Shown here piece after piece: positions 10,075 to 53,531 of a stretch of DNA of 64,000 nucleotides. The position numbers were made by a program, and so were the translations under genes. This stretch comes from a phage. The stretch lies in NCBI GenBank assembly GCA_025812035.1, contig GCA_025812035.1_4719.1. One strand, given 5' to 3'. The notes below the pieces were generated by a model. It made no database searches and was not told where the DNA came from. It saw nothing but the letters and a program-made list of their open reading frames with translations. Numbering within the stretch: position 1 is the first letter of the stretch; every line of letters starts with the position of its first letter.

Positions 10075-11163
10075 ATGAGCGATCTGGCAACAGACAATCG
10101 CACAAAAGGGAGTCAGCTGGCTCCAGATAGCAACGTAAGCGTTTTCCGTATCTTTGCCTTGGGTACTGTTGCTGCTGACTTTTCCAATAAAAGCCTGGAG
10201 GAAGATCCTAATCAGGCGCTGGAGGTCTTTCTTGACGAAATGATGTCAGGTGCTGATGGGAAAGTTGAAGCGGCGGGAAGCGTTAAAGAAGTCAGTGCAA
10301 CAGACGCTCAAGGGAACAGTTATACAGCGAAAGCGGCAACAACAACCAGTGTACAGTGTTATTGGTTACCCTTTGGCAGTAACCGGATGACGGCCCCTAA
10401 CTTGAGGAAAGGTCAGCGTGTAGTGGTCTGGCGTACCGCAGATGAAGAACAGCTGTACTGGCAACCCAAAGGAGGGGATAGTGAGCTGATGACCATGGAA
10501 TCGGTTATCCTGACCGTCAGCGCACGTCCTAACGCTAAGAAGGACCGTAAATCGATTTCAACGGAAGACTGCTATTACCTAATGGTTGACACCTTCCTTA
10601 AGAAAGCAGTTATCGGCACCAGCGCACAGCTTGGTGAAGTTACCCAGGTCTACATGGAACTTAATCTGGACGAGGGTTACTTACAGGTTGCGGACAGCGT
10701 CCATCAAAACCTACTATTGCTCCATTTCGTTGAACATATGCTGCGATATCAAAACCAGGACGACAGCATCATCGACGTGACAAAAAAGAACATCACATTC
10801 CAATGCGAGGATACGCTCAAAGCAATCGCTAAGAACGATATCCGAATGAAAGCCAAAAACATTTATACGGAATGTGAAAACTTCGAACGTGTCAGTAAAA
10901 CAGAAAGCGTTACGAGTCAGAATGTTTCTTTGAAATGCGATCGCTACGCCGCGCAAGTATCAGGACAGACCACGTTCAAATGTCCTAACACGGTATTCAC
11001 AGGAGCTGTGAGCTTCACCGGTGAAGACGGAAACACGATGACGTTGAACGGGAACTTCATCCATATCGCAGGATCGTGGCGTTCACCAAGCGGAACAAAC
11101 GTATACACCCACGACCATGGTGGCGTTAAATCCGGTAGCAGTAGAACCGACCCGTTCCAATAA
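10075..11163 (+). CDS. putative baseplate central spike (gpV-like), C-terminal HxH motif
   Basis: Central region resembles an OB-fold spike domain. The C-terminus ends in THDHGG, like the iron-binding HxH apex of P2 gpV-type spikes. Motif-level only. Confidence 0.4.
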   Translation: MSDLATDNRTKGSQLAPDSNVSVFRIFALGTVAADFSNKSLEEDPNQALEVFLDEMMSGADGKVEAAGSVKEVSATDAQGNSYTAKAATTTSVQCYWLPFGSNRMTAPNLRKGQRVVVWRTADEEQLYWQPKGGDSELMTMESVILTVSARPNAKKDRKSISTEDCYYLMVDTFLKKAVIGTSAQLGEVTQVYMELNLDEGYLQVADSVHQNLLLLHFVEHMLRYQNQDDSIIDVTKKNITFQCEDTLKAIAKNDIRMKAKNIYTECENFERVSKTESVTSQNVSLKCDRYAAQVSGQTTFKCPNTVFTGAVSFTGEDGNTMTLNGNFIHIAGSWRSPSGTNVYTHDHGGVKSGSSRTDPFQ

Positions 11164-11186
11164 ACAAAAAAGAAATACGCCACAAC

Positions 11187-11220
11187 TTCCTTCCCCGGCC
11201 TTGATGGCTAGGGAAGGAGG
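11187..11220. terminator. GC hairpin (family copy 2, variant loop)
   Basis: CCTTCCCC ... GGGAAGG at a convergent junction. Confidence 0.45.
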
Positions 11221-11236
11221 ATTTATAGTTTATTTA

Positions 11237-11626
11237 TTAACGTGTTGCGTTCTGGATAATTTCTTTTCCGATCTTAACCAAAGCAGGTATCTGTACAGCG
11301 GTTGCACCTCGATGACGAAACGCGGTCGTTAACGCGGTATCAATACTTACAGCACGTCCGTGAAGACGATCGAAATAGACTTGAGTAATTGCAGCAGCAT
11401 AATCCTTTCGCTGTTTCTTGGTCTGGTTCAACAGCGCTGTACTACTACCAACAATGAAATAAGCGATTAAGAAGAACGCTGCTGACCGCGAACCAGGTAG
11501 AAAACCTTGTCGCTTAGGAAGCATCTCACAATCACGAACAGTATTATCGTTCGCGAGCTTTTCCATGTCGACATGGCATAATTTTGCATAGGTGTGAAGA
11601 TAGTGGGTAAAAGTTGAATTTAACAT
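11237..11626 (-). CDS. hypothetical protein (129 aa)
   Basis: ORF with SD-like context. Confidence 0.5.
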   Translation of the reverse strand: MLNSTFTHYLHTYAKLCHVDMEKLANDNTVRDCEMLPKRQGFLPGSRSAAFFLIAYFIVGSSTALLNQTKKQRKDYAAAITQVYFDRLHGRAVSIDTALTTAFRHRGATAVQIPALVKIGKEIIQNATR

Positions 11627-11731
11627 TTTCTTTCCTCGGTTACAATGAGTTCAATGTATAGCTTAAACGCCGCAGAACGACGTATAACGGTTTGTTTTAA
11701 TCTCTAAGGTGTTTCCTTGTCTAAGATTGAA

Positions 11732-12094
11732 TTAAAGCGTTCTGAAGAGTTCTGTAGCGTTCTCGTCACGTAAACAGGCTTCGTTCAACAATTCAGCTAA
11801 CAGCTTCGACCGAGCTTCAACGAATGTCCTGAGGCGATGCTTCCATTCTAAACAGACGGTGTATGAACGATCTAGCTTTTTGTGCTCGACGATAGATGAC
11901 GTGCAGTAGGTTTCGCGTTTATTCACATCGTCCCAAACATCACGAATGATCGTCAAGCCTTTCTCAGTACATGTAAACGTTATAACGTAGTGATTGTTCG
12001 CTGCTTCAACATGAACATCAATAAATTCGTTTCGTAGCGATGAGGTATTGGTTAAACGATCAATAGCGAGCGATAAACCGACACGTTGTTGCAT
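11732..12094 (-). CDS. small protein, paralog family S (member 1)
   Basis: Shares FTCTEKGLTIIRD-type motif with the next two genes. Confidence 0.5.
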   Translation of the reverse strand: MQQRVGLSLAIDRLTNTSSLRNEFIDVHVEAANNHYVITFTCTEKGLTIIRDVWDDVNKRETYCTSSIVEHKKLDRSYTVCLEWKHRLRTFVEARSKLLAELLNEACLRDENATELFRTL

Positions 12095-12095
12095 A

Positions 12096-12524
12096 TCAGA
12101 CCCCCTCTTTCAGAATCTCATTAAGGCTATTAGCAACCGCATCTAACTTCGTGTTGATTACTGTTGGTGTCAATCCGTATATTTTCCAAACTATCTCCGG
12201 TTGACGTATTCCATTTGTCAGACAATGCATTTCGATCGACAACACCATATCGTCGGTGAACGTCGTGCTTTCGCAACAACGAAGATAGGCAGCCTCAAGC
12301 AACGTCTTTCCTAACGTGGTACACACAAAAGTCAATCGAACGCAACGCAAAGACAACGTGTTCGCATTCATTGATGCTGAGACCGGCTGAATATGTTCAC
12401 GCAGTTTTTCGTCTTCACGTAATAGTGATAGGGTGCGATGTAAGCTGGTATGCTGAGCAACCAGCGAATGATAAAGACCAACGCGCGCTGCAGTTACTGC
12501 TGATTCGGGCCATTTAATTTGCAT
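12096..12524 (-). CDS. small protein, paralog family S (member 2)
   Basis: CTTLGKTLLEAA matches CSQTGKTLLENA in 12526-12942. Confidence 0.55.
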   Translation of the reverse strand: MQIKWPESAVTAARVGLYHSLVAQHTSLHRTLSLLREDEKLREHIQPVSASMNANTLSLRCVRLTFVCTTLGKTLLEAAYLRCCESTTFTDDMVLSIEMHCLTNGIRQPEIVWKIYGLTPTVINTKLDAVANSLNEILKEGV

Positions 12525-12525
12525 G

Positions 12526-12942
12526 TTATTTTCCTCGATTTTCTAGTTGAGACACAATACCATCGGCAACGTAATGTAACTGGACATTCAGGTCCAGCGG
12601 CGATAATGCGGAAATTGACCAGCAGGCATTTGAGGTCCAATACAACCCACCTTCACCCAAAGAGACTTCCCACGTTAACTTCGTTATGACGTCTCTGGCT
12701 CGCTGCTCACTATATCGAAATGCATTTTCCAACAATGTTTTTCCCGTTTGTGAACATAAAAAGCACAGTTTCACATCTGTGTCCGTCTTTTCAAAATCAA
12801 ACAATCGAAAATGGTCGGTCAAAGAGGTGGTGGAGGCTAGGCATTGCAATGCGTCTTCCAACGCAAGATGGTCTAGCGTTTCTAAGTTCTTGCATGGCTG
12901 TTTTGGTGCAAGTGCGATTGATTTGCAGAATTTAACGTTCAT
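12526..12942 (-). CDS. small protein, paralog family S (member 3)
   Basis: See previous entry. Tightly packed with 1-nt spacing. Confidence 0.55.
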   Translation of the reverse strand: MNVKFCKSIALAPKQPCKNLETLDHLALEDALQCLASTTSLTDHFRLFDFEKTDTDVKLCFLCSQTGKTLLENAFRYSEQRARDVITKLTWEVSLGEGGLYWTSNACWSISALSPLDLNVQLHYVADGIVSQLENRGK

Positions 12943-12990
12943 GGTTATTTCCTCGTAGTGTTAAGTGGGGACACACCTGTCCCCGAATAA

Positions 12991-13461
12991 TTAGATTACA
13001 TCCCAAGCTGCGTTGGGTATGGGTTGGTTACGATCGATGTAATACATCATGCTTTCTTTAAGTTTGGTCAGCACATCAGCAACGATGTTCTCTACGGCAA
13101 TCACCTTTTCCATGTTGCTCATCGTATCTTGCCACGTGAACCATTCGATCACATTGACGATATGTAAGACCTCATTGTCGTCGGTCATGACCTGGGCATT
13201 TTCACGATGGTCTCGAGTTGTGTACAACGGTGTTTGTATATTCGTTTTAATACGCGTCCAAAGCTTCTCAAGAAAGTTCGTCGGTTGATTATTCGTCGCG
13301 ATGATAAGCTCACTGCGTACCAAATGTTCTCCTCGCTTCTCAATGGCAAGTAACCCATCGTAAGTGATGTTCATCAAGTTACGGAGGTCATCATTGCTAT
13401 TCCAGTCTTTTACGACAGCAGGAAGTTGGCTGTTGTAGCCTTCGGGTAATTTTTCAATCAT
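12991..13461 (-). CDS. hypothetical protein (156 aa)
   Basis: ORF in a co-directional array. Confidence 0.55.
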   Translation of the reverse strand: MIEKLPEGYNSQLPAVVKDWNSNDDLRNLMNITYDGLLAIEKRGEHLVRSELIIATNNQPTNFLEKLWTRIKTNIQTPLYTTRDHRENAQVMTDDNEVLHIVNVIEWFTWQDTMSNMEKVIAVENIVADVLTKLKESMMYYIDRNQPIPNAAWDVI

Positions 13462-13906
13462 CGGTTTCTGCTCCTATATCACGTTTAAGGTCGACCACCA
13501 GTTTTTCATAATGGTCTTTTATTACATTAGCAATAACGAATTGCACTTTTCTCACTAGCTGCTCATCGGCATCGTTGAACGTAAAATGCTCACGCACTTC
13601 AACCGGACGTGACGCGCCACCGATATCGTAAACTTTATTCGATGTACGACGAGCGATTACCGGTAGCGATTCCATGGTGTTCAGCGCAGTACAGATTTCC
13701 GTAACGAGTTCTTGAATACTGCTTCTGCCTTCGATGATAACAGAACAGCGATAGACATCCACTTCGTTAAGCTGTTCAACGACATCCGCCTTGATTTTGA
13801 AATTCCCAATAAGAGCGCTAACCAAAGTGCGATGCCAGTTGTTCACTACCCCAACCAGCAAGGGATGATTCTCAAGATCCCTTTTGTTCATCTCTAAGCC
13901 CCTCAA
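13454..13906 (-). CDS. hypothetical protein (150 aa)
   Basis: ORF overlapping the downstream gene by 8 nt. Confidence 0.55.
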   Translation of the reverse strand: MRGLEMNKRDLENHPLLVGVVNNWHRTLVSALIGNFKIKADVVEQLNEVDVYRCSVIIEGRSSIQELVTEICTALNTMESLPVIARRTSNKVYDIGGASRPVEVREHFTFNDADEQLVRKVQFVIANVIKDHYEKLVVDLKRDIGAETDD

Positions 13907-13929
13907 TCGTTCTATAACAAACTTTTATT

Positions 13930-13952
13930 GGAAGGGAATATGTTTCCCTTCC
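13930..13952. other. perfect 9-bp GC hairpin GGAAGGGAA/TTCCCTTCC (family-related)
   Basis: Sits between co-directional genes and has no adjacent U-tract. Confidence 0.4.
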
Positions 13953-13970
13953 TTGGGTTCGGTTATTGCG

Positions 13971-14246
13971 TTACGCAGCTTTACAGCTTGCGTAAACCAC
14001 AATCGTTCCGTTGTTGATTGCCTCAACAATTTCCTGGGTCAGTTTGGTCGCTAATTTATTATCCGTCCCCGGTACGTAATAACCTTCTCCTGTTTCAGTG
14101 ATTAAGCGATAACGTACTAATCCCACCGTACGCTCAACGCGTACCACCTTTTCAAGTTTGTGTTTGATGATCTTCGTCAGACTGATTGTATCTGACGTGT
14201 AGATCGCTTTATAAACTTTGTTCTTTGCTGTCGGTTTCATCAACAT
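13971..14246 (-). CDS. hypothetical protein (91 aa)
   Basis: ORF in the array. Confidence 0.5.
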   Translation of the reverse strand: MLMKPTAKNKVYKAIYTSDTISLTKIIKHKLEKVVRVERTVGLVRYRLITETGEGYYVPGTDNKLATKLTQEIVEAINNGTIVVYASCKAA

Positions 14247-15102
14247 GGTTTCTGTTTTCCTCGGTTTGTTGTGGTGCTAGGTCAGAGATATCCCATCGGA
14301 CATAACCGATCTCACTGATTCGCTCTGCTACCTCTTCGGTTTGCGAATTACGACTAATCATCGGTAACCATTCTCCGTGTCCGGTGATCTTGACTTCCGT
14401 AAGCTGTAAACTCATGTTCCAACGAACATCGTAAACCAACGCATAGCCAAGAGGATGAACAAGTCCATCTTGGGCGTACATCGTCAAAAGACCTCTTACA
14501 TCTTCGCTACGAAGTGATTTCATGGATGGGCGTACGCGTTGAAGTCTATTTGTGATATCGTATCCCAACTCGATGTCTTTCCAACCTGTCATGGCGTAAG
14601 GAATAACGTTACGACGACGGAGCTGATAGTTGTGAGTGGTTTCTTCGGCGGTAAGGTGTACCCAACCGAGATCGCTGTATGCGACAAACCGCACCGTATC
14701 ACCATCGATTGCAGTATGCCCATCTAACGCTGCTGCAACACCGTGGCCTGCGTAATACGGCGGAATAACGTTAATCATTTTAATACGACTTTCTTGACCG
14801 GTATGGTCAGGATCGATATGTGCGTAGAAACAATTATGGCTTACAGGGCGACCTTCCGCCATACGCCCACGGAAGACAGGGTCCTGCATTCCGAGCGGAT
14901 GGTAATACGCGAGCTGTTGCTCTTCACCTTCCCCGATTACCAACAAACGATCTTCACGACTTGGCGTACTAGGATCTTTCACTGTGATGTAACTAACAAC
15001 CGGTTTCAGGTTGTTTAAAATGTCCTCTGTAAGTTTCTCTAAATCCGATGCTGCGTAAATACGGTTAACAACGGTGTTTACAAGGTGTTTTGATAAGCTC
15101 AT
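14209..15102 (-). CDS. paralog family H protein A (unknown function)
   Basis: Shares YHPLGMQD, a second HPLGY motif and C-terminal GYVRWDISDL with 15184-16074. Confidence 0.65.
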   Translation of the reverse strand: MSLSKHLVNTVVNRIYAASDLEKLTEDILNNLKPVVSYITVKDPSTPSREDRLLVIGEGEEQQLAYYHPLGMQDPVFRGRMAEGRPVSHNCFYAHIDPDHTGQESRIKMINVIPPYYAGHGVAAALDGHTAIDGDTVRFVAYSDLGWVHLTAEETTHNYQLRRRNVIPYAMTGWKDIELGYDITNRLQRVRPSMKSLRSEDVRGLLTMYAQDGLVHPLGYALVYDVRWNMSLQLTEVKITGHGEWLPMISRNSQTEEVAERISEIGYVRWDISDLAPQQTEENRNHVDETDSKEQSL

Positions 15103-15183
15103 TTTAGATCTCTCTTTGTTAATGGTAAATAAATAACGGCATAAAAAGGGGACAACGCTGTCCCCGTGTTAGGTATTATCTGC

Positions 15184-16074
15184 TTACGGCTTCAAATCCG
15201 AAATATCCCAGCGTACGTAACCTGTGTGTTCGATATCCTCGACCAATTGCTCGGTTTGATTTTCAACACCGACAACGGGAACCCAATTCAACTGTTGGCT
15301 ACGTATACCGATGTTAACCTCGACACGCTGCAGATCATCATTCCAACGAACCCCGGCCGGTTTCACAAAACCCAGCGGATGGATAAAACTAAGATCGTCG
15401 CTGAAATCACGAAGAACGCGCAATGTATCGATGGATGAAGGGTTATCATAGCGAACAGGACGTACGCTTTGCAGTTTATCGTATACCGCTCGAGCTGCGC
15501 GCTCGTCACGCCAGGTCGTCATGTATACCGGTTTTATACCACGTTTTAGAAGATGATCGATCTGGATCGCGATGTTATCGTGAACATACATGCAGCCCTG
15601 TTCGGTTTCGGTGTTGTAACCACCATCTTCTAACCGGTTCGGATACGTCAGATGGTCTACCGTCACAGCAACTCCTTCAGCGAACGTGTTCAACGGAAGA
15701 AAACGTTGCAGACTCGTTATCGGATAATCGGGCGACATCCCAGGACGGATATGCGCCATCGTCCCCCAACTGTCAGGGAAGCCATGTCGGTATATGTATT
15801 GCCGGAATACCTCATCCTGCATCCCTAACGGATACCATCGTGCAAGCCGCTGTTGCTCACCATCCTGAATAACAAAAAGCATTTCTTTGCGATTCGGCCA
15901 TCGATGATGTTCCACGGTCAAGCCATCAACAACCGGTCTTAAATTGTTCTTGATGTGTTCTGGAAGTTTATCCACCTCTTCACGACGATAAAAACGATCG
16001 ATGACGATGATGTCAACCTTCCCATGATTGAACCAGTTCATGTTAACTCCCTCTGTGGTGCGAAAACAAAACAT
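15184..16074 (-). CDS. paralog family H protein B (unknown function)
   Basis: See A. An alternative ATG at 16041 has SD GAGGGA. Confidence 0.65.
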   Translation of the reverse strand: MFCFRTTEGVNMNWFNHGKVDIIVIDRFYRREEVDKLPEHIKNNLRPVVDGLTVEHHRWPNRKEMLFVIQDGEQQRLARWYPLGMQDEVFRQYIYRHGFPDSWGTMAHIRPGMSPDYPITSLQRFLPLNTFAEGVAVTVDHLTYPNRLEDGGYNTETEQGCMYVHDNIAIQIDHLLKRGIKPVYMTTWRDERAARAVYDKLQSVRPVRYDNPSSIDTLRVLRDFSDDLSFIHPLGFVKPAGVRWNDDLQRVEVNIGIRSQQLNWVPVVGVENQTEQLVEDIEHTGYVRWDISDLKP

Positions 16075-16333
16075 CTAATTGCTCCCGTTGTTCTTTTAAG
16101 TATGCGGGAAGCTGGTCTTCCCGTACCGTTCCGATTTCTAACATGATGTACCAGCGTTGTTCGGAAGCCTGCCATTGAAAACTGCTCTGTAAACGTAGGA
16201 TGCTAGGATCATGTACCTTGCTTGCGCTGTAACGGTTGAACCAGCCCAGGTAAGCGGCTTTCCCCTCCTCATCGGCAACGTAACGCTGCACGCTGTTCTT
16301 CCCTTTGTTTTCGTATCCTGTTGCATGTATCAT
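16043..16333 (-). CDS. hypothetical small protein (~96 aa)
   Basis: ATG at 16333 overlaps the upstream stop as ATGA. ORF track gives 16043-16390. Confidence 0.5.
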   Translation of the reverse strand: MIHATGYENKGKNSVQRYVADEEGKAAYLGWFNRYSASKVHDPSILRLQSSFQWQASEQRWYIMLEIGTVREDQLPAYLKEQREQLDVLFSHHRGS

Positions 16334-17106
16334 GCGAACGTTTCTCCTGTAACGTGTTGTGGGCGTTGCAGCATGGTAGCATCCCAGCATACCAGCTTGC
16401 TTTTCTCAAGCATCTTCCGCGCCGTATCAACGCTAACGCCAGGATGCATGACAGGTAGCCAACGTTCGTTAAGCACCTTGGCTTCCAGGCGTTGCTTGCG
16501 CTTATTGTATTGTACCTCGCTAACCCATGCGTAACCGAAAGGATGGATAACCCGTGGGTAGTAACGTTTAAGCATCATCAGTCTTTGCTGATAAAGCTTA
16601 TCGGAACCCTCACCAACGAATAAGGCAACCCGTTCCAACCGCTTGGTGTAATACGTTCCGGTGGTATGATTGATCCAACCAGGAAGCGTTCGTACATCAT
16701 TTTCGAGTGTTCCTGATACGTTATGCACTTCACCGCTATACACCGTCCCAACAACCTGATTCGTTGCGTCCACCATCGACCGTGGCAAAGCATCCGCGGT
16801 AGGATACAACCATGCATCCCCAAGCTGCTCTCCCGACGCAAGTACCCGTAATCCGCTTGCGCTCACCCGCAACGGATGCTGGCTCTTATGCGCACGCAAC
16901 TGCACCACAGATAAGTCTACCGGATGGGCGATGCAACAGCCACGCTGACGGAACAGTCCAACCTCACCATCCACCCCTTCGATCATGCTTCCTTCCGAAC
17001 CGTTCCACCAACGTTTAACCTTCACGCATTCGGCTTGCACCGTTTCAGGCAACGTTAAATAATCGTGTTCAATAAACACCACATCAAAAATCAATGCTTC
17101 TTTCAT
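16330..17106 (-). CDS. paralog family H protein C (unknown function)
   Basis: Single HPFGY motif and related C-terminus. SD AGAGGA upstream. Confidence 0.65.
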   Translation of the reverse strand: MKEALIFDVVFIEHDYLTLPETVQAECVKVKRWWNGSEGSMIEGVDGEVGLFRQRGCCIAHPVDLSVVQLRAHKSQHPLRVSASGLRVLASGEQLGDAWLYPTADALPRSMVDATNQVVGTVYSGEVHNVSGTLENDVRTLPGWINHTTGTYYTKRLERVALFVGEGSDKLYQQRLMMLKRYYPRVIHPFGYAWVSEVQYNKRKQRLEAKVLNERWLPVMHPGVSVDTARKMLEKSKLVCWDATMLQRPQHVTGETFA

Positions 17107-17191
17107 CTAAAAAGATCCTCTGTTTTTTCACGTTAATTAAACAACGTATTGATTTCTATTCGATAGCAATACGAACATCGTACGTACGCAT

Positions 17192-17215
17192 CACTTAGGT
17201 AATATAGCCGTGAAA
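17192..17215. promoter_or_regulatory. conserved 24-nt motif (copy 2; CACTTAGGTAATATAGCCGTGAAA)
   Basis: One mismatch to the consensus. About 90 nt from the start of 16330-17106. Confidence 0.45.
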
Positions 17216-17858
17216 GGATTTGTGTTACAGAAAGGGTTTTGTTGTGTTTTAAGAAGGGATGGATAGTGATGTTATCTGAAAGGAGGATTTCAAGAAAGGT
17301 CTTGATTGAAGTAGGTGGAGTAAGTGAAGAGGTGAATAAACGAGAAGGGTTAGTTTGGTTGATGTAAGATGTTATCTTGTTATTGTTTTCATGTTTATCT
17401 TAGGTTATGTCTTAATTGTTCATATTCCTGATTGTTTAAGTTGTCTTATTTATCTTGTTTATATAAATAAAATTAAATTATAAAGTCAATCAACATGCTT
17501 ATAAGTTGGATAACTCAAAAAAACCATTTGTGATACTCTTCTTCACGTTGTTCATCAGAGTATCTCGTCTATACTCATTGCATTCGTATACGACATAACC
17601 GTTATACGCTAACGCTACGCTTATAGCTTGATAACTCTAAGGATAAAAACATAAACTCGCTTCGCTCGTTTAGTTTTTCTTTTTCTTAGAGTTATCTTGT
17701 TGCTCGTCTCTAAAGGACTTCGCTCCTCCCCCGTCCCCCGAAGGGGCCGAGGTCGTGGAAATTTTACTTTCCAAATACATTTACAACATCTGTAAACTTT
17801 TACTCCAGGTACTTAATCTTATCATTAGAAATTATCAAAGAGAATAATGACAGCATAA
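17216..17858. other. large noncoding region: candidate replication origin or noncoding RNA locus
   Basis: No ORF. C-depleted purine-rich stretch, AT-rich block (17455-17490), and five or more TTATCTT-type repeats. Confidence 0.35.
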
Positions 17859-17890
17859 CCTTCCTCCAACCCAACAGGGAAGGAGGAAGG
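17859..17890. terminator. conserved two-tier GC hairpin (family copy 4)
   Basis: CCTTCCTCC-AACCCAACAGGGAA-GGAGGAAGG, 3' of the 17906-18799 gene. Confidence 0.5.
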
Positions 17891-17905
17891 GAGAGATTAA
17901 TTCAA

Positions 17906-18799
17906 TTAATCGACAGTGTTATAACCGAATACAGCTTTACCGTAAGTGTGAGTACCGTCGGTTAACGACACCACTAGTACGTGGTTGTATGCGTCGTTAA
18001 CACCCTTGTCAGTAGACCCTGTGGTAGCTCCGTTATAGACAAAGGTAGCTGTTTGCAGGTTGGCTTTCAGCTCGTTAGTGATATCATCGCTGACACCCGT
18101 CTGCTCTTTGATCAGCGTAGTCAGGTTACCTGCCAGGCTTTCACCGATCTTGGTTTCGTTACTGGTGATCGCCTGTAAACCTGTAGTGTAGGAGCTGAAG
18201 TCTAACGGATAGGTTAACAGACGCGCTGAGGTCTTGGTACCATCACCTTCATCAACGTAGGTTAAGTTACCCAGGTTGGTAACCTTGATGATGTTAGACA
18301 GATCCAGCGTTGTGTTATAAACTTTAACTTGAACAGAGCCGTACCACGCCAATGAATCTTCTTTGGCTTCCAGGGTGATCGTCTGGATACCCGATTGCTC
18401 AAAGGTAACCGGCGTAGCTAACGTTTCGGCTTTGATGTCTTTTGCTTTATCCAGGAACTTATCACCAGATGGCGTGATCATACCGTAGCGTTTCGCTACA
18501 AGGTCAACCACATCACCGATGGTGGTGTTCGCATCAACGTTAACACGCACCGCGATCTTCTGGAACCACTTAGCCAGATCCAGACGATGGTAGGTAACAT
18601 CGCGGTTATTGAAGTAAGGAGTACCTTCACCAGGACTGAGTGTTAAAGTTGCTTCTGGAGCAGAAGCGCTTTTAGATTTAAGGACGTATTTAAGGTCGGT
18701 ATATTTAAAGCTGGCACCAGTGTCGGCGTTAAGCTGGTTGATCTCATCAACGATAAGCTGCCATGGTGTTTTTAAAGTAAGCGATACTTGAGCTGTCAT
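17906..18799 (-). CDS. probable abundant virion protein (unknown function)
   Basis: Optimised codon usage and a monocistronic layout. ORF track start at 18832 is TTG; the ATG at 18799 has SD GAGGAAG. Confidence 0.6.
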   Translation of the reverse strand: MTAQVSLTLKTPWQLIVDEINQLNADTGASFKYTDLKYVLKSKSASAPEATLTLSPGEGTPYFNNRDVTYHRLDLAKWFQKIAVRVNVDANTTIGDVVDLVAKRYGMITPSGDKFLDKAKDIKAETLATPVTFEQSGIQTITLEAKEDSLAWYGSVQVKVYNTTLDLSNIIKVTNLGNLTYVDEGDGTKTSARLLTYPLDFSSYTTGLQAITSNETKIGESLAGNLTTLIKEQTGVSDDITNELKANLQTATFVYNGATTGSTDKGVNDAYNHVLVVSLTDGTHTYGKAVFGYNTVD

Positions 18800-45347: not shown

Positions 45348-45371
45348 CACCTAGGTAATGTAAGCGTCAAA
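45348..45371. promoter_or_regulatory. conserved 24-nt motif (copy 3; CACCTAGGTAATGTAAGCGTCAAA)
   Basis: Part of the ~90-bp cassette 45348-45437 with a family hairpin. Confidence 0.45.
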
Positions 45372-53507: not shown

Positions 53508-53531
53508 CACCTAGGTAATATAGTCGTGAAA
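53508..53531. promoter_or_regulatory. conserved 24-nt motif (copy 4; CACCTAGGTAATATAGTCGTGAAA)
   Basis: Part of the ~90-bp cassette 53508-53597. Confidence 0.45.

Follow-up and report, generated by a model that had tools for sequence, protein, structure and literature searches.

The window analyzed here, a 64,000-nucleotide stretch of phage DNA, belongs to a relative of Goslar, a chimallivirus and nucleus-forming jumbo phage of E. coli. Three small genes lie on its minus strand, at the coordinates given in the sequence-only reading: paralog A (12526..12942; 138 aa), paralog B (12096..12524; 142 aa) and paralog C (11732..12094; 120 aa), orthologues of Goslar gp017, gp016 and gp015, respectively. 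The motifs quoted in that reading are present (CTTLGKTLLEAAYLRC in the 142-aa, CSQTGKTLLENAFRY in the 138-aa and FTCTEKGLTIIRD in the 120-aa protein), and the gap it described is exactly 1 nt at both junctions. The sequence reads TAA-c-ATG at the A/B junction (12528-12522) and TGA-t-ATG at the B/C junction (12098-12092). GAGGA or GAGGGGG is found 7-8 nt 5' of each ATG. The Shine-Dalgarno sequence of paralog B (GAGGA, 12532..12536, minus strand) falls within the last codons of paralog A, and that of paralog C (GAGGGGG, 12101..12107, minus strand) is embedded in the codons of K-E-G, which is conserved at the C-terminus of paralog B. A distance of 1 nt from stop to start codon, together with an internal Shine-Dalgarno sequence, forms a geometry that fits translational coupling, and the A/B junction is retained in relatives with the 138-aa allele. 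In the 48-nt spacer 5' of paralog A there is a hairpin, GGGGAC-N6-GTCCCC (12967..12984, minus strand), which is followed by the Shine-Dalgarno GAGGA of paralog A (12954-12950, minus strand). This hairpin occurs twice in 64 kb against 0.02 copies expected, and it is found in all relatives with its stem kept and its loop varied. It could act as a processing, stability or attenuation element.

The surroundings of the triad differ from their first description. The small genes had been placed directly next to an array of larger paralogs and upstream of it; the two groups are in fact separated by three unrelated ORFs (156, 150 and 91 aa; 12991-14246), and in transcriptional orientation the triad lies downstream of the array. 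The description of the proteins as Cys-rich holds with a modest effect, based on 3.3-4.3% Cys versus 0-1.6% in neighboring proteins. The only family-wide Cys is that of an F-x-C-[TS] motif, and it is missing from 147-aa alleles. There is no CxxC, and a Cys-rich metal-binding or disulfide-bonded small protein was rejected on these grounds.

The three paralogs and a 129-aa gene end a minus-strand block headed by a candidate early (virion RNA polymerase) promoter, TTTCACGGC-TATATTACCTAAGTG, at 17192..17215 (minus strand), ~90-100 nt 5' of the block's first gene. The site, TTTCACGGCTATATTACCTAAGTG at 17215-17192 on the minus strand, carries a phiKZ-type early motif (TATATTAC, extended consensus) and matches the early promoter consensus of phiKZ and 201phi2-1 (PMC7058600, Table 2). 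Four copies of the motif are present in the window versus 0.35 expected, all on the minus strand. The copy heading the block is kept in eight relatives, and no other copy lies between it and the triad. A scan for sigma-70 promoters and terminators gave no excess over shuffled sequences. At the distal end, a G+C-rich hairpin with a T-run (11165..11220, no strand assigned) is situated between the convergent 129-aa gene and baseplate spike gene; a Goslar terminator is annotated at the homologous position, 11186-11220. Judged from its sequence, this element is probably the end of the early transcription unit.

Expression data are available for the Goslar orthologues. Upon knock-down of chimallin, which stalls infection at the vesicle stage, transcripts of Goslar gp014-gp021 are kept or raised, with log2FC of +0.8 to +1.4 (bioRxiv 10.1101/2023.09.20.558163, Sup. 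Table 2). For gp015-017 the values are +0.9 to +1.2 at 30 min post-infection in the ChmA knock-down, and the flanking late genes gp005-013 and gp022-036 drop by ~3-7.6 log2 units (bioRxiv 10.1101/2023.09.20.558163). By these data the Goslar orthologues are nucleus-independent early genes, a timing that is carried over by analogy to the phage of the window. At the protein level, Table S4 of a virion proteomics study gives four LC-MS/MS peptides for gp017 (34.7% coverage) and peptides for gp016 too (bioRxiv 10.64898/2026.04.21.720040). In the same source, gp017 accompanies virion material through CsCl banding, and its amount is estimated at 12-29 copies per virion. The occurrence of gp017 in virion material hints at a large phage assembly, as opposed to a free cytoplasmic role.

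The kinship claimed for the three proteins was confirmed. In pairwise BLASTP, the 142-aa and 138-aa proteins share 25% identity over 135 residues, their full length, with E=1e-7; the 120-aa protein matches the 142-aa protein at E=0.04, and no match was found between the 120-aa and 138-aa proteins. Profile comparison of the 120 family with the 142/138 family (A3 vs A4, hhalign) gave 93.9% probability and E=1.6e-7 over 92 columns, while eight neighboring gene families used as controls all gave E>=0.05 against both paralog profiles. The AlphaFold2 model of the 142-aa protein (pLDDT 86, pTM 0.83) has an alpha-bb-alpha-bb-alpha topology preceded by an N-terminal extension of ~25 residues, and the model of the 120-aa protein (pLDDT 92) has the same topology. 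Paralog C has no counterpart of the first ~25 residues of A and B. The two models were compared by the order of their secondary-structure elements, whose offsets rise steadily from 21 to 31 residues and are in register with the hhalign alignment. The three genes are true paralogs that share one small two-layer alpha/beta sandwich fold.

C-terminal helix patterns had raised the suspicion of a wider family. The 156-aa and 150-aa neighbors and the C-termini of the large paralogs were rejected as further members (hhalign E 0.05-0.9), and the 156-aa and 150-aa proteins are themselves related marginally at best (E=0.02). A P-loop NTPase, suggested by the G-K-T of the shared motif, was likewise rejected. 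At the first position of Walker A, [AG]xxxxGK[ST], the alleles have V, L, A, F or S, and at the last position T, V, M, A or D; in the 120 family the order is reversed to K-G. In the AlphaFold2 model, the G-K pair follows an antiparallel hairpin and begins helix a2, within its first turn, whereas a Walker A loop joins a parallel strand to a helix.

Goslar gp015, gp016 and gp017 (YP_009820700-702) are syntenic with the triad and alike in order and in lengths or length classes. Paralog C is 72% identical to gp015, paralog B 55% to gp016 and paralog A 54% to gp017, and the Goslar alleles are unlike those of the window, above all for the middle gene. The Goslar proteins are annotated as 'hypothetical protein', as are NCBI EKA1377429-431, which are identical to the three proteins of the window. 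The searchable literature yielded nothing on the function or paralogy of gp015-017. Only Goslar-like phages carry the family, with 32 and 13 clusters in searches of 5.8 billion proteins, and an exhaustive HMM search of 1.84 billion proteins recovered only five representatives, all Goslar-like. Scans of the paralogs against Pfam, PHROGs, NCBIfam and PADLOC produced only sub-threshold noise, and PDB sequence searches with both profiles gave nothing below E=0.1. No match was obtained from an Rfam scan of 11000-18000 or by megablast against complete E. coli genomes and against plasmids, and a profile search of genome contigs with the 120-aa family found no relative. The family is new and uncharacterized, and of a familiar kind.

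Fold searches with the models returned only generic sandwich matches. These include DCoH-like/RBP11-like sandwiches (RNAP alpha NTD, Rpb11/RpoL, DCoH/PCD and Pcc1) and a TYW3-like UPF0130 subdomain, at 4-18% identity and with no profile match; compared with the DCoH-like/RBP11-like sandwiches, the triad family has one more helix at the N-terminus and a long one at the C-terminus. The matches of the predicted models are scattered over unrelated superfamilies and de novo designs, which is resemblance and not demonstrated homology. The best Foldseek matches of both models in BFVD are small proteins of other jumbo phages (139-168 aa; E 9e-6 to 1e-2; TM 0.4-0.63), from Erwinia phages Stratton, Kwan and Simmy50, PhiPA3 (gene 356), 201phi2-1 (B3FJY3), PDCC-1, VP4B and RaK2. 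The targets are largely common to both paralog models, and all are uncharacterized proteins. PhiPA3 gene 356 is annotated as similar to phiKZ gp290, for which no literature was found, and was rejected as a sequence relative with an hhalign probability of 0.2% against the A3 profile. The look-alike in Simmy50 is not located at the syntenic site.

The triad had been called an accessory locus of diversified paralogs, and both terms are borne out by comparison with relatives. It occurs in Goslar-like phages only, and Erwinia phage Simmy50 has none of the early block at its syntenic SbcC-spike site. Paralog A is absent from the most divergent relative (L011) and is replaced by an in-frame fusion in another (L017). 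Between relatives, the paralogs are 47-74% identical, compared with 94-100% for flanking genes. Paralog A has 138-aa and 147-aa allele classes. Paralog B is the most variable member, with alleles of 142, 141 and 137 aa that share 47-58% mutual identity. Each of the three genes has discrete alleles, which reassort independently of those of the other two. The last ~33 codons of paralog C belong to the conserved flank, as dS in this gene falls from about 0.62 to 0.155 past codon 88. The variable island extends from ~11830 to 17100, and within it the copy number of the larger paralogs changes and the 150-aa gene is present or absent. Variability in the proteins peaks in the hairpins and b3-b4 (entropy 1.3-2.0), compared with 0.39 in a1; good conservation of helix a3 (0.32) is limited to the 120-aa family. 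The recovered full-length members (28 and 12 in the alignments) have unbroken reading frames and fall into conserved length classes, with few exceptions: two 81-aa variants of the 120 family, a partial record of 97 aa and the fusion in L017.

Variable islands of early or accessory genes occur in lytic phages, for example the hyperplastic regions of T4 and anti-defense gene clusters. Like them, this locus consists of small, lineage-specific early genes between core modules and displays paralogy, presence/absence and allele exchange. Unlike them, it has no member that matches a known anti-defense protein, and it belongs to the stage of chimallivirus infection before the nucleus forms.

The further claim that the locus is under diversifying selection is not demonstrated by dN/dS analysis. 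Gene-wide Nei-Gojobori omega is 0.10-0.45, below 1 throughout, and thus positive selection is not shown. The largest segment value, 0.66, is that of b3-b4 of the 142 family, where many pairs are saturated. Flanking core genes have omega of 0.01-0.06. The paralogs have dN of 0.15-0.46 versus 0.002-0.018 in the flanks, at similar or higher dS, an excess of ~10-100-fold. Much of this change could be due to relaxed constraint. Allele classes of the 142 and 138 genes are separated by a dS of 1.3-4, several-fold above that of the flanks, which argues for old allele lineages swapped by recombination at least as much as for rapid adaptive change.

Because the triad is switched on early and evolves far faster than its neighbors, its members are probably host-interaction accessory genes. 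We tentatively favor, as a possible reading that falls somewhat short of an even chance, an early cytoplasmic host-interaction or counter-defense module with a variable beta-sheet face. The triad would be the distal, coupled part of a ~6-kb early transcription unit in a Goslar-like chimallivirus, from which three small cytoplasmic proteins would be made in the first minutes, when the genome is still inside the early-infection vesicle. These proteins would act on host components, such that immunity is neutralized or evaded or a host function is taken over. The conserved helices (a1 and a3) and the F-x-C-[TS]-x-x-G junction would form a scaffold and possibly an interface for assembly of the paralogs, and the recognition surface would lie on the fast-changing beta-sheet and hairpins, most of all on b3-b4 of the 142-aa protein. 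Co-circulating phages would exchange alleles of each gene by recombination. The cytoplasmic location, the host target, the oligomer and the direction of selection are what we infer. Early chimallivirus proteins can be sensed by host immunity, as the early protein JADA triggers Avs5 (PMC12931631). Known anti-defense or host-takeover proteins (among them Acr, DNA mimics such as Ocr/ArdA, Tad and Gad) gave no sequence or fold match. In a narrower and rather doubtful version, the paralogs would form a hetero-oligomer through their conserved helices and bind host immune or housekeeping proteins with their hypervariable beta-sheet faces. A conserved assembly face would let phages exchange alleles of each subunit, and the result would be a combinatorial counter-defense or immune-evasion module acting in the unprotected window before the nucleus forms, at the early-infection vesicle stage. 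If true, this would be a new anti-defense protein family.

A role intrinsic to the phage, in which a hetero-oligomer of the paralogs belongs to a large phage structure or serves as its chaperone (for example the virion payload, nuclear-shell fragments or a filament), is unlikely but has some weight. Gene order is fixed and the 1-nt coupling geometry is retained in nearly all relatives. Moreover, gp017 (median ~19 copies per virion), gp018 and gp016 are reported in PEG/CsCl-purified Goslar virion preparations, which according to the authors also contain nucleus fragments and PhuZ filaments (bioRxiv 10.64898/2026.04.21.720040). The copy numbers given there are far from stoichiometric, however, at ~19 for gp017 versus ~0.6 for gp016, and gp015 is not among the matches listed; neither the 28 modeled virion proteins nor the named high-copy unmodeled ones include any of the three. 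Free reassortment of alleles and the occasional loss or fusion of paralog A also argue against an intrinsic assembly, and the family is not conserved beyond the genus, unlike structural and shell components. The paralogs might also build an assembly platform of the alpha/Rpb3-Rpb11 type for one of the alpha-less multisubunit RNA polymerases of the phage; we know of no recognized alpha subunit in chimallivirus RNA polymerases. This idea is barely credible: TYW3-like proteins, DCoH, M20 domains and de novo designs match the fold equally well or better, there is no Pfam RNA_pol_L or RNA_pol_A_bac match at E<=1, paralog A is dispensable, and the family is genus-restricted and hypervariable, where a polymerase subunit should be core and conserved.

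The paralogs may instead be targets and not weapons, with some other early function, and be recognized by protein-sensing immunity (Avs-like or similar), their variation representing escape. We hold this to be fairly improbable. Early expression of the Goslar orthologues, the discrete alleles, and variation in the beta-hairpins with conservation of the helical scaffold agree with it, and JADA as the trigger of Avs5 is a precedent (PMC12931631). It shares with the host-interaction reading the weakness of an omega below 1, and the dispensability of paralog A suggests that gene loss would be an easier escape than diversification. On present data, these two explanations are indistinguishable. Much the same low probability is given to weakly constrained, lineage-specific ORFans, which would have been kept by duplication in a recombination-prone island, would have no specific or important function, and would owe their variability mostly to drift and recombination. 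The omega of 0.2-0.45, which is 5-40 times that of the flanks yet below 1, is compatible with such an origin, as are the loss and fusion events and the variation of the whole island (~11830 to 17100). Omega clearly below 1 nevertheless means that purifying selection is acting; frames are intact and length classes conserved with few exceptions, the AlphaFold2 models are confident despite shallow alignments, and the motif, helices and coupling signals are conserved. Transcripts and, in the proteomics table cited above, peptides of the Goslar orthologues also count against ORFans.

Nucleus-forming jumbo phages resist DNA-targeting immunity after the shell is built, and the first minutes of infection and protein-sensing defenses are their exposed flank. 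The triad is early, restricted to the Goslar genus and far more variable than the near-identical genomes that surround it, and it is thus a concrete candidate for a host-range or counter-defense determinant of Goslar. It is also a tractable one, as E. coli is the host of Goslar and the phage already has knock-down tools, RNA-seq and virion proteomics. Even if the three genes are weakly constrained ORFans, the sharp recombination boundary inside the 120-aa gene is useful for the study of mosaicism in this phage group.

The three genes lie in tandem on the minus strand at 12526-12942 (paralog A, 138 aa), 12096-12524 (paralog B, 142 aa) and 11732-12094 (paralog C, 120 aa); ORF reading confirmed these positions and the motifs quoted for them by the sequence-only reading. 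The claimed 1-nt spacing was also correct. The junctions read TAA-c-ATG and TGA-t-ATG, with GAGGA or GAGGGGG 7-8 nt ahead of each ATG and within the preceding gene, a geometry classic for translational coupling. A megablast search with window positions 11000-14000 returned Escherichia phage vB_EcoM_Goslar as its sole match (83% identity across the first half of the query). Goslar is a jumbo phage that forms a nucleus; the taxonomy in its record places it among the chimalliviruses, in the genus Goslarvirus, and its coordinates are near-identical to those of the window (Goslar 11731 corresponds to window 11732). The Goslar counterparts of C, B and A are gp015, gp016 and gp017, all annotated as 'hypothetical protein'. 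NCBI entries EKA1377429-431, which an 'E. coli' assembly carries on a 238.6-kb contig, are identical to the window's three proteins.

Pairwise BLASTP had been proposed as the check on the shared motif, with E above 1 as its refutation. It aligned the 142- and 138-aa proteins over 135 residues (E=1e-7, 25% identity) and the 120- and 142-aa proteins at E=0.04, limited to the motif, and found no alignment between the 120- and 138-aa proteins. Family alignments of the 142/138 type (28 sequences) and the 120 type (12 sequences) matched each other in hhalign at E=1.6e-7, with 93.9% probability over 92 columns; as controls, eight neighboring gene families all gave E>=0.05 against both alignments, and known large paralogs gave E<=2e-12 against one another. 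Confident AlphaFold2 models of the 142-aa (pLDDT 86, pTM 0.83) and 120-aa (pLDDT 92, pTM 0.84) proteins have a common predicted element order (alpha-beta-beta-alpha-beta-beta-alpha), which agrees in register with that alignment of profiles, and the 120-aa protein is without the N-terminal ~25 residues present in the other two. From the pairwise, profile, control and model results, the locus therefore holds exactly three paralogs, as the motif had suggested. Their description as Cys-rich is accurate in composition (3.3-4.3% Cys versus 0-1.6% in neighbors), but the Cys of F-x-C-[TS] is the only one common to the paralogs and the family alignments contain no CxxC pairs. The G-K-T of the motif was considered as a Walker A element and rejected from the alignments and the AlphaFold2 model.

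No sequence matches were found in protein-family and solved-structure libraries. Foldseek searches of BFVD with the 142- and 120-aa models returned largely the same small uncharacterized proteins of other jumbo phages (E 9e-6 to 1e-2, TM-scores 0.4-0.63), including proteins of Erwinia phages Stratton, Kwan and Simmy50, PhiPA3 gene 356, 201phi2-1 B3FJY3, and proteins of PDCC-1, VP4B and RaK2. Of these, PhiPA3 gene 356 lacks profile similarity to the triad's family. The triad proteins make up a family of a familiar kind that had not been described before.

In a comparison of nine full loci, identity between relatives is 94-100% for the flanking genes (RuvC, 272-aa, SbcC-like, spike and 129-aa), versus 72-96% for the 120-aa gene, two levels (89-99% or 54%) for the 138-aa gene, and just 47-58% to each other locus examined for the 142-aa gene. 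By the Nei-Gojobori method, flanking core genes have dN of 0.002-0.018, dS of 0.2-0.5 and omega (dN/dS) of 0.01-0.06. Corresponding values are about 0.15, 0.37-0.53 and 0.27-0.44 between allele types of the 120-aa gene, 0.29-0.46, 1.3-1.9 and 0.20-0.30 for the 142-aa gene, and 0.385-0.39, 2.9-4 and about 0.1 between allele classes of the 138-aa gene. Allele classes of the three genes combine freely; one relative (L002) carries the window's 138- and 120-aa alleles with a 137-aa middle allele. Amino-acid change is thus in strong excess in the triad, which is a mosaic of old alleles, and the description of the paralogs as diversified is supported. Diversifying selection, as had been suggested, is unproven: the Nei-Gojobori estimates gave no formal evidence of omega above 1, gene-wide or by structural segment, and the segment maximum was 0.66, in strands b3-b4 of the 142 family, where many pairs are saturated. 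Helix a1 has the lowest residue entropy, together with a3 in the 120-aa family, and the hairpins and b3-b4 have the highest. Divergence drops sharply after codon 88 of the 120-aa gene (window 11732-11830): dS is about 0.62 before this point and 0.155 after it, and dN is 0.17 before and 0.02 after (0.022 in the last 33 codons). Because both are low in these last codons, the edge of the variable island falls inside this gene, and the drop is likely a recombination boundary.

Goslar transcripts at 30 min have been compared with and without knock-down of chimallin, which keeps infection from passing the early-infection vesicle stage (Armbruster et al., bioRxiv 10.1101/2023.09.20.558163, Supplementary Table 2). 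In that dataset, gp014-gp021 were unchanged or slightly up (log2FC +0.8 to +1.4; gp015-017 +0.9 to +1.2), and gp005-013 and gp022-036 were down by about 3-7.6 log2 units. Since gp014-gp021 transcripts hold under knock-down, the triad appears to lie within a nucleus-independent early block. A candidate early promoter, TTTCACGGC-TATATTACCTAAGTG, is located on the minus strand at 17215-17192, about 90-100 nt upstream of the block's first gene, and fits both the early promoter TATATTAC of phiKZ and the extended consensus of 201phi2-1, OBP and N1M2 (PMC7058600 Table 2). Eight relatives keep its core element, at a distance of 96-189 nt ahead of the block. Four copies of the 12-mer ATTACCTARGTG are present in 64 kb, versus 0.35 expected, each of them on the minus strand, and copies of the phiKZ-type motif TATATTACCTARGTG lie on that strand at 17192-17215, 2511-2525, 45348-45362 (as the variant TACATTAC, 45362-45348) and 53508-53522. 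The copies at 2525 and 17206 head blocks with Goslar orthologues gp001-004 and gp014-021, which behave as nucleus-independent early genes. Because no further motif copy was found between 17192-17215 and the triad, the latter is probably carried on a single early transcript of about 6 kb, which would end at a hairpin and T-run common to the block and the convergent spike gene; this element is an annotated terminator in Goslar. Ahead of the first paralog is a conserved palindromic hairpin, GGGGAC-N6-GTCCCC (12967-12984), its stem kept and its loop variable in all relatives. The only other copy in 64 kb (15148-15165) is followed by a T-run, and both lie in intergenic spacers of the early block.

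At the protein level, the rows listed in a proteomic study of Goslar virions (bioRxiv 10.64898/2026.04.21.720040, Table S4) include gp017 (4 peptides, 34.7% coverage, an estimated 12-29 copies per virion), gp016 (2 peptides, about 0.4-0.95 copies) and gp018, with gp015 absent among them. Chimallin and PhuZ were also in this preparation, with copy numbers of about 100 or more, and its authors say that it took in nucleus fragments and filaments. The gp016 and gp017 peptides prove expression, not packaging.

A word-indexed search of 5.8 billion proteins yielded 32 clusters with the 142/138 profile and 13 with the 120 profile, and an exhaustive HMM search yielded five matches among 1.84 billion representatives. 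Records with the family are metagenomes or E. coli, Salmonella and Shigella isolate assemblies, and the long contigs among them span 135-260 kb, mostly about 235-260 kb. Triad order and spacing are constant in the fetched loci with two exceptions, L011 and L017. The junction ahead of the 120-aa gene is retained across the Goslar-like relatives examined (with 2-nt spacing or overlap in L011), and that ahead of the middle gene in every relative with a 138-aa allele; where the first gene is the 147-aa allele, a 15-nt spacer with its own SD takes the place of this junction. L011, the most divergent relative (33% and 51% identity), carries just the 142-type and 120-type genes, placed immediately behind a homologue of the 156-aa gene, and no 138/147-type gene in L011:184-1484. 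In L017:1405-1740, protein P0032 is an in-frame fusion in which the first ~42 codons come from the 156-aa gene and the remainder from the final ~69 codons of the 138-aa gene. This fusion and the L011 loss are natural rearrangements at the triad head. Erwinia phage Simmy50 differs in that large virion genes come next after SbcC and spike, without a Goslar-type early block. From the family distribution, the L011 and L017 exceptions and the Simmy50 absence, the early block is thus a genus-level accessory insertion, and the proposal of an accessory locus holds.

Together, these data fit an early, genus-specific accessory module whose common scaffold is kept and whose beta-sheet side varies. The conserved helices may hold the proteins together as a hetero-oligomer. 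The best explanation, which we put forward tentatively, is a role in host interaction at the pre-nucleus stage; the proteins would act on the host before the nucleus forms, in counter-defence, host takeover or immune evasion. A phage-intrinsic role in assembly is a rival to which the apparent translational coupling and the co-purification of gp017 with large assemblies both point. The variation could instead be driven by escape from host sensors, for which the early protein JADA and Avs5 provide precedent (PMC12931631), or the triad could consist of weakly constrained ORFans. Far less likely is an alpha-like platform for phage RNA polymerases.

Goslar-like contigs (mostly 235-260 kb) are present in many isolate assemblies of Salmonella, E. 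coli and Shigella, as well as in metagenomes of gut or wastewater type, and absent from complete RefSeq E. coli genomes and PLSDB plasmids; this could reflect a carrier state or culture contamination, not stable carriage. The triad had been placed directly upstream of the larger paralog array, but three unrelated ORFs intervene (12991-14246) and, in transcription, it is downstream. Copy number of that array varies among otherwise near-identical phages (L001, L005, L008, L012, L014): three genes in the window (297, 296 and 258 aa; 14209-17106), a single gene in Goslar and L008, a pair in L005 and, apparently, as many as four in L014, with the extra copies being putative paralogs. Identity of its orthologues falls to 27-45%. 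Between the early block and a DUF7941-type virion gene is an AT-rich, ORF-poor spacer of about 800 nt (17107-17905), with repeated AAGATAA(C/A) words, a G-rich hairpin near 17750 and no Rfam match; Goslar has an unannotated gap of similar size (14972-15825). A 150-aa ORF (13454-13906) occurs only in window-type genomes (L002, L012, L013, L014) and is missing from Goslar, L003, L005 and L008; because it matches the adjacent 156-aa gene marginally over its full length (hhalign E=0.02), it may be a very old duplicate of that gene. The last gene of the block (129 aa; 11237-11626, minus strand) is 94-98% conserved, unlike its upstream neighbors, and because its product is also basic (pI 9.8) with a hydrophobic stretch, AAFFLIAYFIVGSSTALL, it may be a membrane-associated early protein.
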